Shown here piece by piece: positions 570 to 30,450 of a stretch of DNA of 64,000 bases. The number at the start of each line of letters is the position of its first letter. Position 1 is the stretch's first letter. The notes beneath the pieces are model-generated. The model was not told the origin of the DNA and made no database searches. It saw only the letters and a list, made by a program, of their open reading frames with translations. Origin of the DNA: an uncultured Methanosarcinales archaeon (GTDB taxonomy: Archaea > Nanobdellota > Nanobdellia > Woesearchaeales > JAGVZT01); the NCBI GenBank assembly GCA_964354685.1, contig CAYHAM010000005.1, forward strand, positions 9,942-73,941, written 5' to 3'. The position numbers were made by a program, and so were the translations under genes.

Positions 570-667
570 GCCGTGGTCGCATAATCTGGTATTGCGAATG
601 GTTCAGGACCATTTGGCCTCACAGCCATGCGGGTTCGAACTTCTTTGCGGAAGTCCCGTCCACGGCG
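570..667 (+). tRNA. tRNA-Leu (anticodon CAG), type II with a long variable arm and a ~14-nt insertion in or after the T-loop
   Basis: Acceptor GCCGTGG/CCACGGC with discriminator G. Anticodon stem AATGG/CCATT, loop TTCAGGA. Variable-arm hairpin TGGC-CTCACA-GCCA. T-stem GCGGG/CCCGT, T-loop TTCGAAC followed by extra TTCTTTGCGGAAGT. Confidence 0.7.
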
Positions 668-4120: not shown

Positions 4121-5316
4121 AAATAAAAACAATATTGTGGATGATTGTAGCATTGGTTTTGGTTAGTCAAAGCCTTGCGCTTGGAGTTGCACCAGGCCAT
4201 GAGGATATTGTTTTTGCTCCAAATGGCGAGCATAGGGTAAAACTAAAGATAATCAACAATGACAACAATGATCTTAGAGTGGTTTTGTATGCAGAAGGCG
4301 AGCTTGCAGAGTTTGTCACTTTTGATGATTTGACTATGGATATTAGAGCAGATGAAAAAGAGAGCTTTACTTATTATACATTGAAATTGCCTGAGAAGTT
4401 TGATAAGCAAGGCTTGCATAGTGCTAACATTGTTGTTAGACAGATTCCTCTAGAGAAAGAGGGTGAGGGTATTAGCATGGCTGCTAGTGTTGCTATTATA
4501 CATAAGCTGAATGTTATGGTGCCTTATTCTGGGAAGTATGTTGAGATAACATTGTTTAGTCCAAACTTTGAGGTTGGCAAGCAGAGCAATTTTGCAGTTG
4601 AGGTTAGGAATTTGGGAACAGATGATATTTTGCAGGCTCAGGCGATAGTCGATATTTACGGGCCTTTGAATAACAAGCTTGATACTGTTTATTCTGATAT
4701 TCAGCCAATAGCAGCAAAGGACAAGAAGATATTGGTTGCAAAGTGGATTCCTGCATTAGGTGCTGGGAGTTATTATGCGGTTGCAACTGTTGTTTATGAT
4801 GAGTTGAATGTTAAGGATGAGGCTCAGTTTAATATTGGGACAATGATTATAGATGTTGTTGATGTTAGTGTTACTGACTTTAAGCTTGGAGGCATAGCAA
4901 AGTTTGATATTTTGTTTAGCAGCAACTGGAACATACCTGTTGAGGGGGTTTATGCTGAGACAACTATAACTGATGAGTCTGGCAAGGTTTATACAAAGTT
5001 TAAGACTGCTGATGTTGATATGCCTGCGTTTGGTAAGGAGCGTGTTGATGCCTATTGGGATACTGCAACAGTTGGGCCAGGCAAGTACAAGATGAATGTG
5101 TTGTTAAATTACTTAGATAAAACTTCTGAGAAGCTGTTTGAAATAATCGTTTCAATGGACAAGATCCAGGCTAGTCCTGTTGGTAAGCTTATAACACCAA
5201 TCCAAGAAGATGGTGAAGAGTTAAAGATAACCTCTTTGGTTTATATACTTGCATTCCTTGTTGTTTCGCTGATAATATTCAATGTATATATGTATTTTAA
5301 AAAGTTTAGAAAGTAG
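4117..5316 (+). CDS. Surface protein with signal peptide and C-terminal TM anchor; paralog of 7704..8855
   Basis: Shares the NLGTxxIxxAxAIxDxY core region with the 7704 ORF. C-terminal hydrophobic helix plus KKFRK tail. Confidence 0.5.
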   Translation: MKIKTILWMIVALVLVSQSLALGVAPGHEDIVFAPNGEHRVKLKIINNDNNDLRVVLYAEGELAEFVTFDDLTMDIRADEKESFTYYTLKLPEKFDKQGLHSANIVVRQIPLEKEGEGISMAASVAIIHKLNVMVPYSGKYVEITLFSPNFEVGKQSNFAVEVRNLGTDDILQAQAIVDIYGPLNNKLDTVYSDIQPIAAKDKKILVAKWIPALGAGSYYAVATVVYDELNVKDEAQFNIGTMIIDVVDVSVTDFKLGGIAKFDILFSSNWNIPVEGVYAETTITDESGKVYTKFKTADVDMPAFGKERVDAYWDTATVGPGKYKMNVLLNYLDKTSEKLFEIIVSMDKIQASPVGKLITPIQEDGEELKITSLVYILAFLVVSLIIFNVYMYFKKFRK

Positions 5317-6700: not shown

Positions 6701-6955
6701 ATGGCTCAAGAGGATATTCCAAAAAGGGTGATTTTTGTTCTTTTGATTTTGACAATTGTTATTTCTGTTTTAGGAACTTGGACTGTTCTGGATGCTGTAA
6801 GCAGTGCCCAGCCAAGGGCTTTGCCAAGCACAGCACAGGGTAATGTTAATATTAACATTTTACCACCAAATTCTGGTCAACAAGAACCTGCAATACAAAA
6901 AGCTGAAGCTCAAGGTGTTGTGGGTTTAACAATTCTTGAACAAAAAGGAGGATGA
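6701..6955 (+). CDS. Small membrane-anchored/secreted protein (84 aa), present in two identical copies
   Basis: MAQEDIPKR, then a hydrophobic helix, then a Q/P-rich tail. Identical to 9478..9732. Confidence 0.45.
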   Translation: MAQEDIPKRVIFVLLILTIVISVLGTWTVLDAVSSAQPRALPSTAQGNVNINILPPNSGQQEPAIQKAEAQGVVGLTILEQKGG

Positions 6956-6959
6956 TAGA

Positions 6960-7661
6960 ATGGCTGAAGAGATCTCAAATAGAACATTAGCTATTTTGTT
7001 GATTGTTGCAATTGCAATATCTTTGGGAGGCACGATAATTAGCTTGAATAGACTGACACAAATGGGTTTTCCTGGTATAACAGGTGCTGCACAAACTGAT
7101 ACAGGGACAGCAACTGTTAACATAACATCACAGGCATCGATAATCTTTCATGCTGGCAATAACACGGTTGCTTTTGGTAGTGGATGGGTGAATAGCACAG
7201 AGAGTAGTGGAATTTGTGTTATGAGTGCTATAAATTCTAGTGATGGTACAGTAAATTCGGCTTGTAAAGGTAGTTGGGCTGCTGGTTTGAGCGGATTTAT
7301 AATAGAAAACAATGGAAACGTGAATCTTACTGTTGAGGTTCATTCAGATAAAAACTCAACTGAGTTCTTAGGTGGTCAAACTTCTGGAACTAATAACATG
7401 GCTTTCACTTTTATGGCTTACAATAATGAATCAGCATCATGTACTAGTTTGAACATTACTTGTGATAATGAGTGGTTTGCTTGGCCAGATAATGATGCAA
7501 AAACAGGTATTTGTAATTCCACTACTGGTGGCTTGGGTTATGATGACACTAAAGACTCAATGGTTATTGACCTTAACTTAAGTATAGACTACAGAACCAA
7601 TAAAACTGGTAACGGCACTCAAACAGCAACAATAACTGCTACTGGTACTGCCCTTACTTAA
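6960..7661 (+). CDS. Secreted/surface paralog family protein; start probably the internal ATG (track ORF 6936 uses an alternative start)
   Basis: Alignment with 5544 places the start at MAEEISNRT. Confidence 0.55.
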   Translation: MAEEISNRTLAILLIVAIAISLGGTIISLNRLTQMGFPGITGAAQTDTGTATVNITSQASIIFHAGNNTVAFGSGWVNSTESSGICVMSAINSSDGTVNSACKGSWAAGLSGFIIENNGNVNLTVEVHSDKNSTEFLGGQTSGTNNMAFTFMAYNNESASCTSLNITCDNEWFAWPDNDAKTGICNSTTGGLGYDDTKDSMVIDLNLSIDYRTNKTGNGTQTATITATGTALT

Positions 7662-9477: not shown

Positions 9478-9732
9478 ATGGCTCAAGAGGATATTCCAAA
9501 AAGGGTGATTTTTGTTCTTTTGATTTTGACAATTGTTATTTCTGTTTTAGGAACTTGGACTGTTCTGGATGCTGTAAGCAGTGCCCAGCCAAGGGCTTTG
9601 CCAAGCACAGCACAGGGTAATGTTAATATTAACATTTTACCACCAAATTCTGGTCAACAAGAACCTGCAATACAAAAAGCTGAAGCTCAAGGTGTTGTGG
9701 GTTTAACAATTCTTGAACAAAAAGGAGGATGA
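9478..9732 (+). CDS. Small membrane-anchored protein (84 aa), identical copy of 6701..6955
   Basis: 100% identity. Confidence 0.45.
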   Translation: MAQEDIPKRVIFVLLILTIVISVLGTWTVLDAVSSAQPRALPSTAQGNVNINILPPNSGQQEPAIQKAEAQGVVGLTILEQKGG

Positions 9733-9736
9733 TAGA

Positions 9737-10441
9737 ATGGCTGAAGAGATCTCAAATAGAACATTGGCTATTTTGTTGATTGTTGCGATTGCAATATCTT
9801 TGGGAGGCACGATAATTAGCTTGAACAGACTGGCACAGGTGCGTGTTCCTACTATAACAGCTGCTGCATTAACAGACACAGGGACAGCAACTGTAAATAT
9901 AACATCTCAGGCATCGATAATTTTTCATGCTGGCAATAACTCGATTGCTTTTGGTAGTGGATGGGTGAATAGCACAGAAAGCAGTGGAATTTGTGTTATG
10001 AGTGCTATAAATTCTAGTGATGGTACAGTAAATTCAGCTTGTAAAGGTAGTTGGGCTGCTGGTTTAAGTGGGTTTATAATAGAAAACAATGGAAACGTGA
10101 ATCTTACTGTTGAGGTTCATTCAGACAAAAACTCAACTGAGTTTTTGGGAAATCAAACTTCTGGAACTAATAACATGAATTTCACTTTTATGGCTTACAA
10201 CAATGAAACAGCATCATGCGGTCAATTGAACGCTAGTTGTGATGATGAGTGGCTTGCTTGGCCAAATGGGGATGCAAAAACAGGAATATGCTTTAATACA
10301 TCTAATGGTGGCTTGGGTTTTGATGACACTAAAGACTCAATGGTTATTGACATTAACTTGAGTATAGACTATAGAACCGTTCTCACTGGTAATGGTACTC
10401 AAACAGCAACAATAACTGCTACTGGTACTGCCCTTACTTAA
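9737..10441 (+). CDS. Secreted/surface paralog family protein (third copy)
   Basis: Paralog of 5544 and 6960. Confidence 0.55.
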   Translation: MAEEISNRTLAILLIVAIAISLGGTIISLNRLAQVRVPTITAAALTDTGTATVNITSQASIIFHAGNNSIAFGSGWVNSTESSGICVMSAINSSDGTVNSACKGSWAAGLSGFIIENNGNVNLTVEVHSDKNSTEFLGNQTSGTNNMNFTFMAYNNETASCGQLNASCDDEWLAWPNGDAKTGICFNTSNGGLGFDDTKDSMVIDINLSIDYRTVLTGNGTQTATITATGTALT

Positions 10442-25451: not shown

Positions 25452-25641
25452 CGAGCCTGGGGGGACTCTCGTGCTAATTAGCATTTCGAACCCCCGACCT
25501 ACAGCTTACTATGCTTCAGCTAGTTCTCTTCATACTCATTAGAGTACTACTCCGAGACTCTTCATAAGCTTAGGAGGCTTACAAAAGGTAAAATTAAGTA
25601 TTTTAACCTTTGTTGCCCTATCCAGACTAGGCTACAGGCTC
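25452..25641 (-). tRNA. tRNA-like gene with large insertions (about 190 nt); anticodon undetermined
   Basis: Perfect acceptor pair GAGCCTG/CAGGCTC. D-arm GCCT-AGTCTGGATA-GGGC. T-stem GGGGG/CCCCC with TTCGAAA loop, but about 100 nt of extra sequence. Confidence 0.45.
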
Positions 25642-26963: not shown

Positions 26964-27076
26964 AAAATGAAAAAGCCTCCGGAGGGAGTTGAACCCTCGA
27001 CCTGCGGATCACTTGCATAAGGGCTACAAGTTTCGGCTTTAGAAATCCGCCGCAATAGCCACTATGCTACGGAGGC
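26964..27076 (-). tRNA. tRNA-Arg (anticodon TCT) with a canonical-position intron (~30 nt)
   Basis: Reverse complement has GCCTCCG/CGGAGGC acceptor, GCGGA-TTTCTA-(intron)-A-TCCGC, and T-arm GAGGG-TTCAACT-CCCTC. Confidence 0.7.
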
Positions 27077-27990: not shown

Positions 27991-29553
27991 TCATTTATAA
28001 TCTGCAAGGCTGATTTGGCCTTTTCTTTTTCTTGGCTTTACCTTTATCTTTGACTCAGCATAGTCTTGTCCAACTTGTTGCTTGATGTCAATTGCAATGC
28101 GCTTTCCCAATAGTTGAGTTAGGGTCATAATATTTGCGCTTTTAACATCTGCTATTGTTCTTACCTTGTTGTTGTATAGCCTTCTTGCTCTTACCCTACC
28201 TATGTTTCTGAGCTTTAATAAAGGAAGCAACTCTTCTTTTGCACCATGCTTTATCCTTAATCTTGTTTTGATTAGCTCTTTTAATAATGGTTTTAGTTGT
28301 AGGATTCTTGCAATCTCGTATGAAGAGTAGAGTAACCAGTCTGCTATCTCAAGCTTTACTCTAAGTTCGCCAGGTCTGATATCATATTTCTCTAATAGAT
28401 ATTCCTCTTCTTTTTCCTCAATCCAATCATAGAACATTAAAGCTGTTTTTATTGAGTTTAGAAAGTCTTCATACTCTGGGTCGTACAATGAAGGTTCATT
28501 TGACAAAATGATGTTGTCATATTCAACAATCTTTTCTTGGGTTTGCTCCCATTCTTTTGTTTTTACTCTGAGCAATGGCCTCATCTCAAGTGTTTGGGAT
28601 ATTATTTGTAGGAAGGAGAATTCTCTAACAAGCTTTGTTTTTGCTCTTTTTTGGCAAACAACTATTTGGTGTGCTGTTAGTGGATCAAGGTAGAGTTGTG
28701 CCACTCTTTTTCCAAGGTTTGTTGCATTTATGCATTCTTTGTCAAGTTGTTCTGCTGATACAAACTCTTTTCTAGAGGTTTTTATGAATTCCCATTCTTC
28801 TAGTTGTCCTAGTGTTTTTGTTATTATCTTCCTTAGCTTGGGCATGTCCTCAAACTGCATTGCCCAGAATGTTTTTGAGAAGAAGTCAAAGATTTGTTGC
28901 TTTGTTTTTACAAAATCCGTTGCTATTAAAGATAAGAGGTATGTTCTCAGAACTGGTTCTACTGCTAATTTCGAGTAGATTTCTTCTGGTTCTCCAAGGA
29001 TGTATTTTTCATAGATGTTGTTTTTTTCTGCACTTGAGGTTGCTATTGAAATTGCTTCGCCATATTTGTCAAAGCTTGGTCTGCCTGCTCTGCCTGCTTG
29101 TTGATGGTATTCCAAAACAGGTATCCAGTCTAAGCCATGATGTCCATATCTTTTTAGGTCTCGGATTATTGTTCTAAATGCTGGCAAATCTACGCCAGCT
29201 GCAAGTGTTGGTGTGCAGCATATTATTTTTATTGTGCCTTTTCTGAATTCATCTTCTATTAGGCTGCGCTGCTTTTGAACTAAGCCAGCATGGTGGAATG
29301 CAATTCCTTTTTTAGCAACCTCTGCAAGCCTTTCACATTGTTTTGTTGGTTTTGAGAGTGCTTTTAGGAGTTGGGTGGATAGCTGTTCATATTTTGGATC
29401 TTTTGTTTTGATCTTTTTTGCTATGTCTTCTGCACATTTTTCTGCACTGCGCTTTGTGTTGACAAATATTAATGCTTGTTTATTTTTTTTGGTTGTGTCT
29501 AATGCGAGGTCAATTACAGGGTTTGCAGTTATTTGCTCTATTTTCGTTTTCAT
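27991..29553 (-). CDS. Hel308/Ski2-like helicase, C-terminal two-thirds only (RecA2, winged helix, ratchet, HhH); RecA1 not encoded here
   Basis: Motif VI QQAGRAGRP. Helicase-C region IICCTPTLAAGVDLP. Begins at the RecA2 boundary. Confidence 0.65.
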   Translation of the reverse strand: MKTKIEQITANPVIDLALDTTKKNKQALIFVNTKRSAEKCAEDIAKKIKTKDPKYEQLSTQLLKALSKPTKQCERLAEVAKKGIAFHHAGLVQKQRSLIEDEFRKGTIKIICCTPTLAAGVDLPAFRTIIRDLKRYGHHGLDWIPVLEYHQQAGRAGRPSFDKYGEAISIATSSAEKNNIYEKYILGEPEEIYSKLAVEPVLRTYLLSLIATDFVKTKQQIFDFFSKTFWAMQFEDMPKLRKIITKTLGQLEEWEFIKTSRKEFVSAEQLDKECINATNLGKRVAQLYLDPLTAHQIVVCQKRAKTKLVREFSFLQIISQTLEMRPLLRVKTKEWEQTQEKIVEYDNIILSNEPSLYDPEYEDFLNSIKTALMFYDWIEEKEEEYLLEKYDIRPGELRVKLEIADWLLYSSYEIARILQLKPLLKELIKTRLRIKHGAKEELLPLLKLRNIGRVRARRLYNNKVRTIADVKSANIMTLTQLLGKRIAIDIKQQVGQDYAESKIKVKPRKRKGQISLADYK

Positions 29554-29555
29554 TT

Positions 29556-30107
29556 TTACAGCATACTCAACACCCTCTCAGCAAAGTGTGTGAAGAGGAA
29601 TAGGTTTATAAGCATGTTTAATGTGAAAGAAATAATACTATTTATTGGATTAAAGCCTAAAGCTAATATGTAAGTGGTATGAATAACTAAGTTAAAGACA
29701 AGTGTTAATATTATGCCTGCTATTGATACATTCAAACCCAAAAGAAGAAAAGAGAGCAAACAGATTATGAAGTAGGCAGCTATTTGAATAAACATTGGGA
29801 TGCATAGGCGTCCATTGAGAATTGAGCCAATAATTAACATGGTTGTTGCTGCAAGCATTGCAAACAATGGAGAAAAGGCAAAGCAAAATATTATTGTTAT
29901 GAATGTTATGAGCTCAAATCCCAATGATAGTTGAATGAACCTTTTCCAAAATATTGAGATTATTCCAATTGAGATTAGTAACAATGTTAGGATTATTGCT
30001 TTAAATCTTTGGAAGAGTATTAAAATAATGAGAATTGATACAAGTAGAATAACATACTTCTTGATGTAATTTTTAGCATCCTGTGATAATACGTATTTGT
30101 TTATCAT
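29556..30107 (-). CDS. Hydrophobic membrane protein (183 aa)
   Basis: About 6 TM helices. Confidence 0.35.
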   Translation of the reverse strand: MINKYVLSQDAKNYIKKYVILLVSILIILILFQRFKAIILTLLLISIGIISIFWKRFIQLSLGFELITFITIIFCFAFSPLFAMLAATTMLIIGSILNGRLCIPMFIQIAAYFIICLLSFLLLGLNVSIAGIILTLVFNLVIHTTYILALGFNPINSIISFTLNMLINLFLFTHFAERVLSML

Positions 30108-30170
30108 TTTTTAATATACAAATATTCTAGATTGGTTTATAAGTATTGTGTCAGAATGTTTTGTGAAAAA

Positions 30171-30303
30171 TGGGCCCGCGGAGACTTTCACTTTTAAAGT
30201 TTTGAACTCCGGACCACCCGATTTCTAAAGCTTTTATCAGTCGGGCACTCCAATACCCAATCTTTTACTTCTGTAAAAGTTTACCAGGCTAAGCTACGGG
30301 CCC
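30171..30303 (-). tRNA. tRNA with multiple non-canonical introns (tentatively Ile, anticodon GAT)
   Basis: Acceptor GGGCCCG/CGGGCCC. Anticodon stem CCCGA/TCGGG, loop CTGATA+A. T-stem CGGAG/CTCCG with TTCAAAA loop plus 16 extra nt. D-region insert of about 30 nt. Confidence 0.5.
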
Positions 30304-30329
30304 ATTAAAGCTAGCCACAAGGGCTAGAA

Positions 30330-30413
30330 CGCCCCGGGCCAGGTTTGAACTGGCGACCTTGCGGTTTCTAGGCAAGCTAACAGCCGCACGCTCCACCACT
30401 AAGCTACCGGGGC
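30330..30413 (-). tRNA. tRNA-Asn (anticodon GTT) with a 12-nt intron at 37/38
   Basis: GCCCCGG/CCGGGGC acceptor. TGCGG-CTGTTA(intron)A-CCGCA. T-arm GCCAG-TTCAAAC-CTGGC. Confidence 0.65.
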
Positions 30414-30431: not shown

Positions 30432-30450
30432 TATCCTTTTATATAGTTTT
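30432..30450 (-). promoter_or_regulatory. TATA box for the tRNA-Asn / tRNA-Ile dicistron
   Basis: GGATTAAATATCCTTTTATATAG upstream of 30413. Confidence 0.4.

Follow-up and report, generated by a model that had tools for sequence, protein, structure and literature searches.

A tRNA-Ile(GAU) gene of a DPANN archaeon with three probable BHB-type introns in its D-, anticodon and T-loops

We analysed a window of 64,000 nt (the whole stretch of DNA examined here), whose minus strand carries between positions 30303 and 30171 what is very probably a working gene for tRNA-Ile(GAU) from an AT-rich DPANN archaeon, interrupted by three protein-spliced introns of the BHB type. This reading is directly supported by the anatomy of the gene, the BHB geometry at its junctions, the resemblance of the spliced product to a tRNA, and relatives that have or lack introns at identical junctions. 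The four exons lie collinear inside 133 nt, and the gene is thus neither split nor permuted.

Anatomy of the gene and its splice motifs

Read 5' to 3' from 30303 to 30171, the precursor is GGGCCCGUAGCUUAGCCUGGUAAACUUUUACAGAAGUAAAAGAUUGGGUAUUGGAGUGCCCGACUGAUAAAAGCUUUAGAAAUCGGGUGGUCCGGAGUUCAAAACUUUAAAAGUGAAAGUCUCCGCGGGCCCA (133 nt, counting discriminator A73), and divides as follows.

30171..30303, minus strand: complete tRNA-Ile(GAU) gene, 133 nt, four exons and three introns; CCA not encoded
30284..30303, minus strand: exon 1, 20 nt; acceptor 5' strand, U8 A9, D-stem 5' strand GCUU, and D-loop AGCCUGG up to G19
30253..30283, minus strand: intron 1, 31 nt, UAAACUUUUACAGAAGUAAAAGAUUGGGUAU; D-loop position 19/20 (between G19 and U20)
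30235..30252, minus strand: exon 2, 18 nt; U20 G21, D-stem 3' strand GAGU, G26, anticodon-stem 5' strand CCCGA, and at its end the loop CUGAUA with anticodon GAU and A37
30223..30234, minus strand: intron 2, 12 nt, AAAGCUUUAGAA; canonical position 37/38
30201..30222, minus strand: exon 3, 22 nt; A38, anticodon-stem 3' strand UCGGG, variable loop UGGUC, T-stem 5' strand CGGAG, and T-loop UUCAAA up to position 59
30185..30200, minus strand: intron 3, 16 nt, ACUUUAAAAGUGAAAG; T-loop position 59/60
30171..30184, minus strand: exon 4, 14 nt; U60, T-stem 3' strand CUCCG, acceptor 3' strand CGGGCCC, and discriminator A73

Joining the exons of 20, 18, 22, and 14 nt, and thereby removing 59 nt of insert in total, yields the 74-nt sequence GGGCCCGUAGCUUAGCCUGGUGGAGUGCCCGACUGAUAAUCGGGUGGUCCGGAGUUCAAAUCUCCGCGGGCCCA, which ARAGORN identifies as tRNA-Ile(gat) with a normal cloverleaf; that is, intron removal restores a canonical tRNA. 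Its isoacceptor identity is further borne out by the 7-nt loop CUGAUAA, U33, A37, discriminator A73, and a sequence close to that of other archaeal tRNA-Ile genes. The original prediction had described a 133-nt gene with a perfect 7-bp acceptor (GGGCCCG/CGGGCCC), an anticodon stem CCCGA/TCGGG whose loop CTGATA..A suggested Ile-GAT, a T-stem CGGAG/CTCCG, and additional sequence in each of the three loops (D, anticodon, and T), and every one of these elements was found. Standard detectors were silent on the precursor: ARAGORN reported 0 genes in the 133 nt, and the Rfam tRNA model RF00005 gave no match either at the gathering threshold or at E <= 10. The latter result is expected, since this model accepts an insert only at 37/38. 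Weak Rfam matches of the precursor to snoR130 and mir-3140 (E about 6) were dismissed as noise.

To locate the splice motifs, we enumerated every pair of positions able to form the archaeal geometry, i.e., a 4-bp central helix between the last exon nucleotides (minus two) and the last intron nucleotides (minus two), with 3-nt bulges cut after the second nucleotide. With relaxed forms (HBh', hBH, or bulge-helix-loop) accepted beside the strict one, this enumeration uncovered a BHB-type motif at all three junctions, just where the original prediction had proposed that the blocks are introns and that such motifs should be sought. The 59/60 intron lies within a strict BHB (hBHBh'), with the T-stem as outer helix (5 bp), UUCA/UGAA as central helix (4 bp), CUU/AAG as inner helix (3 bp), and the bulges AA|A and AG|U. 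An equally strict BHB appeared anywhere in 47 of 2000 shuffles (2.4%), so that the strict motif alone is weak evidence, and we place the weight on its position and on the comparative data. At 37/38 the motif is a relaxed bulge-helix-loop that has no inner helix: beside the central helix CUGA/UUAG (4 bp), the 3' bulge AA|A stacks on the anticodon stem, and the 5' splice site is inside an 8-nt loop. The motif at 19/20 is a near-strict BHB whose outer and inner helices are each broken by one mismatch. Its outer helix is the D-stem with an A14.G21 mismatch, and the 3' bulge AU|U, the central helix GCCU/GGGU (4 bp), and the 5' bulge GG|U are followed by an inner helix consisting of A22-U45, A23-U44, an A.A mismatch, and then a 7-bp hairpin. 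Inspection of the introns by eye revealed no pair of C box (RUGAUGA) and D box of the kind that marks a C/D-box sRNA.

The precursor is predicted to fold with -53.0 kcal/mol vs -34.0 +/- 3.8 kcal/mol in dinucleotide-preserving shuffles (z = -5.0), and 0 of 200 shuffles was as stable. A conformer holding all three BHB motifs together is a valid cloverleaf-like structure of -39.3 kcal/mol, which is 13.7 kcal/mol above the minimum-free-energy fold; the cleavage-competent form is therefore not the thermodynamic optimum, and we count this as a caveat. The minimum-free-energy fold instead has a D-loop helix of 7 bp and misses the 3' bulge.

Homologous loci, the D-loop boundary, and alternative readings

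Scanning GTDB genomes for the first 20 nt of the gene, then CUGAUA, revealed more than 100 archaeal tRNA-Ile genes that share the identical first 20-mer. Intronless genes with these same 20 nt continue U(U)G GAGC, so that the nucleotides UUGGAGU, with which the D-loop insert of the window ends, look like exon. Indeed, loci L092 and L086 (Woesearchaeota/Nanoarchaeota) contain an uninterrupted D-arm, GCUUAGCCUGGUGGAGUG, that is exactly G20 of the precursor joined to U52. The boundary of exon 1 was set by these two loci together with L134, a metagenome locus (Ga0315277_10090024) with exons 74/74 identical to those of the window gene in the same blocks of 20, 18, 22, and 14 nt. Its introns interrupt the same three junctions and, with 32, 38, and 46 nt, are unrelated in sequence to the 31-, 12-, and 16-nt introns of the window. 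Identity of all four exon blocks despite differing inserts rules out chance and evidences purifying selection on exons and splice motifs.

From metagenomes we retrieved 18 loci with a D-loop insert flanked by ...AGCCUGG and UGGAG.... In all 20 homologs, L052 among them, the 3' end of the D-loop intron reads RGGY (UGGC in L134) followed by A(A/U), with the cut before U (C in L128), and every 5' bulge reads G18 G19|N. The RGGY stretch is complementary to exon nucleotides G15 C16 C17 U17a over 4 bp in 19 of the 20 sequences and over 3 bp in L134, and an inner hairpin of sequence unrelated between homologs is kept in 18/20 (16/17 distinct introns). The D-loop intron of the window conforms to this pattern, with GCCU/GGGU, GG|U, and AU|U. 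Intronless tRNA-Ile genes of the Woesearchaeota L104 and L108 are identical to the spliced product at 69/76 and 69/75 positions, respectively. Introns are thus present or absent at the exact junction among orthologs, and their sequence is free outside the splice motif. These relatives with and without introns at the same junctions, along with the motifs and the 74-nt product, sustain the original interpretation of the three inserts as introns.

Overall, tRNA-Ile genes of the relatives have 0 to 4 introns at nine or more positions, which include 19/20, 22/23, about 30/31, 31/32, 37/38, about 45/46, about 53/54, and 59/60, and most of the multi-intron homologs retrieved were missed by Rfam and ARAGORN. 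The most disrupted ortholog, L020, is a 225-nt tRNA-Ile(GAU) gene at 4527-4751 (+) of DATDWO010000021.1 (Candidatus Nanoarchaeia archaeon SMAG_U8113), from which four inserts must be removed to leave a 75-nt tRNA-Ile accepted by ARAGORN. Two of them measure 16 nt each and lie at about 31/32 and at 37/38, the third, of about 31 nt and with a weak BHB, sits in the variable loop, and the fourth has 87 nt at 59/60. Reviews give three introns as the maximum per archaeal tRNA gene (PMC4090602, PMC4033280, PMC8450103). Two other loci, the metagenome contigs L136 (1018-1134; 1677-3136) and L131, have a D-loop-intron tRNA-Ile gene a few hundred nucleotides upstream of an archaeal 16S rRNA gene, which could be used for phylogenetic placement of the intron-bearing clade.

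The original prediction had assigned the blocks to the right three loops and left the D-loop block unspecified; the comparative data refine the latter to the boundary G19|U20, an exact placement that we hold to be likely. Where U21 = U52, the splice sites could be shifted by one nucleotide, which leaves the spliced product unchanged. Judged on sequence alone, several registers are possible in the D-loop. Registers (20,50), (21,51), (21,50), and (22,49) were discarded, as they have no central helix or create D-loops absent from relatives, and so was the register implied by the minimum-free-energy fold (i=23, j=48), from which splicing would leave a 15-nt D-loop. The register that gives a textbook D-arm deserves closer attention. 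It would set the D-arm intron at 22/23, so that exon 1 ends ...GGUAAA, a 30-nt intron runs CUUUUAC...UAUUGG, and exon 2 starts AGUG, creating a D-arm GCUU AGCCUGGUAA AAGU with the canonical A21. The pair (i=24, j=54) does appear in the BHB enumeration with a 4-bp central helix GGUA/UAUU, and one relative, L039, has a strict BHB intron at 22/23. However, pairing in this model is weak, as the central helix is made up of two A-U besides two G-U pairs, the outer helix is 1 bp long, and the inner one contains three G-U pairs. In addition, the match of UUGGAGU to the D-loop end and D-stem of intronless relatives would have to be coincidence, and the model conflicts both with the RGGY-A(A/U)| 3' motif of the 20 homologous introns and with the uninterrupted junction of L092 and L086. 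We therefore consider the 22/23 placement unlikely.

Two further readings deny that the inserts are removed from a working tRNA. The locus could be a decaying pseudogene, or a tRNA-like relic containing insertions, and would then yield no working tRNA: standard detectors do not see it, 59 nt of insert is unusual, and the window is part of a genome where another Ile(GAU) gene, even an intronless one, could exist. Yet none of the four stems departs from perfect pairing except by G-U pairs, every insert falls within a BHB-type motif, the exons match those of L134 at every position despite unrelated introns, and both the promoter/terminator context and the synteny described below are conserved, all of which renders decay very improbable. 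Retention of one or more inserts in the mature RNA as extra arms of an expanded tRNA is suggested by the ability of inserts 1 and 3 to fold as independent hairpins, but homologs whose exons are identical differ freely in the length and sequence of their inserts, and close relatives lack inserts. Moreover, the D-loop insert pairs in the BHB fold with nucleotides 15-17a, which puts G18 G19 in a bulge, and the T-loop insert splits the T-loop; from tRNA structure, both would block the D-loop/T-loop tertiary interaction. We regard such an expanded tRNA as extremely improbable, and retain the reading of a functional gene with three introns to be spliced out.

Genomic setting and proposed processing

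The GC content of the window is 34-40%, and its archaeal proteins include TruD, a family-B DNA polymerase, an XPD-like helicase, ribosomal protein S7, a type II/IV secretion ATPase, and membrane proteins, besides which very large Ig-domain surface proteins are encoded. The helicase beside the tRNA gene is 52-62% identical to tRNA-Ile-adjacent genes in Woesearchaeota/Nanoarchaeia loci and related metagenome contigs. By these sequence features, the host appears to be an AT-rich DPANN archaeon resembling Woesearchaeota/Nanoarchaeia. The Hel308/Ski2-like helicase ORF (27991-29553, -, 520 aa) begins in the Helicase_C (second RecA) domain and is devoid of the N-terminal ATPase domain; the same truncated helicase occurs in L130, L123, L129, L121, L022, and L052, where about 30 nt separate its start from the upstream tRNA-Ile. 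The gene may be split, with its N-terminal half encoded elsewhere. A 183-aa membrane-protein ORF (29556-30107) sits between the tRNA and the helicase in the window. The window also contains two identical copies of a 51-nt GC-rich segment, GGATGCTGTAAGCAGTGCCCAGCCAAGGGCTTTGCCAAGCACAGCACAGGG, at a distance of about 2.8 kb from each other (6790-6840 and 9567-9617, +), each copy lying about 100-150 nt upstream of a paralogous-looking ORF of ~240 aa with no Pfam match (6936-7661; 9713-10441).

The tRNA-Ile gene is the second of a tandem with the following elements.

30437..30445, minus strand: TATATAAAA box, 24-32 nt upstream of tRNA-Asn (-32..-24), then TTTAATCCATATCCCTAA
30330..30413, minus strand: tRNA-Asn(GUU) gene, upstream of tRNA-Ile; called by ARAGORN and Rfam (56.6 bits)
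30377..30366, minus strand: intron of tRNA-Asn(GUU) at 37/38, 12 nt, GCUUGCCUAGAA
30304..30329, minus strand: spacer between the two tRNA genes, 26 nt, UUCUAGCCCUUGUGGCUAGCUUUAAU, with a 6-bp hairpin CUAGCC/GGCUAG
30166..30170, minus strand: TTTTT run directly after the tRNA-Ile discriminator, read from the sequence

This arrangement agrees with the original prediction, which had put tRNA-Ile 26 nt downstream of an intron-bearing tRNA-Asn(GTT): the spacer at 30329..30304 is 26 nt long, and tRNA-Asn has a 12-nt insert after position 37. The spacer has no TATA-like element where one would be expected from the other tRNA genes of the window, and promoter distance upstream of tRNA-Ile falls in the body of tRNA-Asn. 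There is no oligo-T tail after tRNA-Asn, and the TTTTT after tRNA-Ile probably serves as an archaeal transcription terminator. The tandem recurs in relatives (L020, L022, L087, L104, L108, L122-L124, L126, L128-L130, and L132), many of which have spacers of only about 3-7 nt, and the gene order Asn-Ile-(helicase)-Arg(UCU) is likewise conserved. Because tRNA-Ile has no promoter of its own, tRNA-Asn is followed by no T-run, TTTTT follows tRNA-Ile, and the tandem is conserved, co-transcription of the pair behind a shared TATA box, as had been originally proposed, is likely. The spacer hairpin reads CUAGCC-CUUGU-GGCUAG, the long spacers of L128 and L108 also hold a hairpin, and this may be a processing or structural element of the dicistronic precursor.

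The box upstream of tRNA-Asn is also found, with the same spacing, at tRNA-Arg(UCU) (27076), together with a near-identical downstream motif, TTTAATCCAT(A/T)(T/A)CCCTAA. The element common to both genes runs TATATAAA, 6-7 nt, and then the latter motif up to the tRNA 5' end, and looks like a lineage-specific tRNA promoter and leader.

We infer expression, processing enzymes, order of events, and termination along the following lines. A dicistronic Asn-Ile precursor would start from the TATA box upstream of tRNA-Asn and end at the T5 run after tRNA-Ile, and the two tRNAs would be cut apart by RNase P and tRNase Z. In the tRNA-Ile precursor, each arm would be lengthened by a helix of loop nucleotides with the intron 3' end, so that four base pairs lie between the two splice sites, each of which is in a 3-nt bulge (or a loop). 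EndA, the archaeal splicing endonuclease, would cut at these sites, an RtcB-type ligase would join the exons, and CCA addition would come last to give the canonical 74-nt tRNA. None of the 50 ORFs of >= 150 aa in the 64-kb window had a Pfam match to an EndA (tRNA_int_endo) or RtcB domain.

All five tRNA genes found in the window are interrupted (5/5, about 9 introns), and three of the five were missed by ARAGORN and Rfam. Besides tRNA-Ile and tRNA-Asn, they are as follows.

570-667, plus strand: class II tRNA-Leu(CAG), missed by ARAGORN and Rfam
25452-25641, minus strand: tRNA-like gene, 190 nt, with acceptor GAGCCUG/CAGGCUC and a canonical D-arm, missed by both detectors
26974-27076, minus strand: tRNA-Arg(UCU) with a 30-nt intron at 37/38, called by ARAGORN and Rfam

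Like introns are thus present in the other tRNA genes, among them 59/60 introns ending AG|U. In that of tRNA-Leu(CAG) (14 nt, 640-653, CUUCUUUGCGGAAG), the central helix is UUCG/CGGA, the bulges are AA|C and AG|U, and ARAGORN identifies the spliced form as tRNA-Leu(cag). The 190-nt gene combines an intron of 32 nt at 29/30, whose outer, central, and inner helices measure 3, 4, and 3 bp, with a 19-nt strict BHB intron at 59/60 and an insert of roughly 64 nt in the anticodon loop, CUCCUA|...|A, whose sequence suggests Arg(CCU). No standard BHB could be drawn for this ~64-nt insert, nested-intron schemes included, and no homolog of the gene occurs among the fetched loci.

Relation to known disrupted tRNA genes and biological meaning

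Up to three BHB introns per tRNA gene are known from Thermoproteales/Crenarchaeota (Sugahara et al. 2007, 2008; PMC4090602, PMC4033280, PMC8450103). As in those genes, the introns described here combine the canonical 37/38 site with non-canonical ones such as 59/60, have strict or relaxed motifs, and escape general finders; in contrast, the host here is a Woesearchaeota/Nanoarchaeia-like DPANN archaeon with 35% GC rather than a hyperthermophilic crenarchaeon, and it presumably has an endonuclease other than the (alpha-beta)2 type that carries the crenarchaeal loop. Positions listed in a review comprise 20/21, 22/23, 25/26, 29/30, 30/31, 45/46, 53/54, 56/57, 59/60, "etc.", and the G19/U20 site is absent from this open-ended list. 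D-loop and 37/38 introns also share one gene in Methanopyrus kandleri, whose pre-tRNA-Glu(UUC) has an HBh' intron at 20b/21 plus a canonical one and is cleaved by EndA in vitro (Kaneta et al. 2018, PMC5829648), whereas the present case has three introns instead of two, another D-loop position, and a different lineage and enzyme. Nuclear/nucleomorph tRNA genes of Cyanidioschyzon merolae and Guillardia theta similarly bear multiple introns (PMC3728597, PMC4090602), two or three of them ectopic in the D, anticodon, and T arms and spliced there in a BHB-dependent manner, but their hosts are eukaryotic and, with no homology, the likeness is an analogy only.

Within the same superphylum, disrupted tRNA genes of DPANN have been tied to the epsilon2 EndA (ARMAN-2) or to an alpha4 EndA with the L3 loop (PMC3239211, PMC5829648). 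A survey with one Woesearchaeota and one Pacearchaeota genome reported more tRNA gene disruption in DPANN lineages having the L3-loop alpha4 EndA, and the incomplete tRNA sets of the surveyed DPANN suggest undetected disrupted genes (PMC5829648). We found no description of this gene or of the conserved 19/20 intron family in these two DPANN papers (PMC3239211, PMC5829648), nor, in the open-access papers searched, of the G19/U20 D-loop intron family or a four-insert tRNA gene as in L020. Multi-intron archaeal tRNAs and DPANN tRNA gene disruption are already published, the mechanism is ordinary for archaea, and no new one is revealed here.

The gene probably reads the AUC/AUU isoleucine codons of its host, and adds a well-supported case that heavy tRNA-gene disruption is not restricted to Crenarchaeota. 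Multi-intron tRNAs had been put forward as a hallmark of a few archaeal lineages and good taxonomic markers. They are indeed a known archaeal type, but they are not confined to Thermoproteales, and since they are widespread and patchy in the Woesearchaeota/Nanoarchaeia-like DPANN clade, they make weak markers at fine scale. Annotation by ARAGORN and Rfam alone would undercount the tRNA sets of such genomes, and the D-loop 19/20, 37/38, and 59/60 introns are natural substrates for testing the specificity of the DPANN splicing endonuclease. The evidence leaves evenly poised the broader notion that this clade underwent its own large tRNA-intron expansion, equal to or beyond the Thermoproteales record, with the G19/U20 family passed down through many lineages. 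In that case, a detection artefact would account for much of the "missing tRNA" problem in DPANN genome bins, and the EndA of the clade, reported as alpha4 with the L3 loop, would have to be very broad in specificity.
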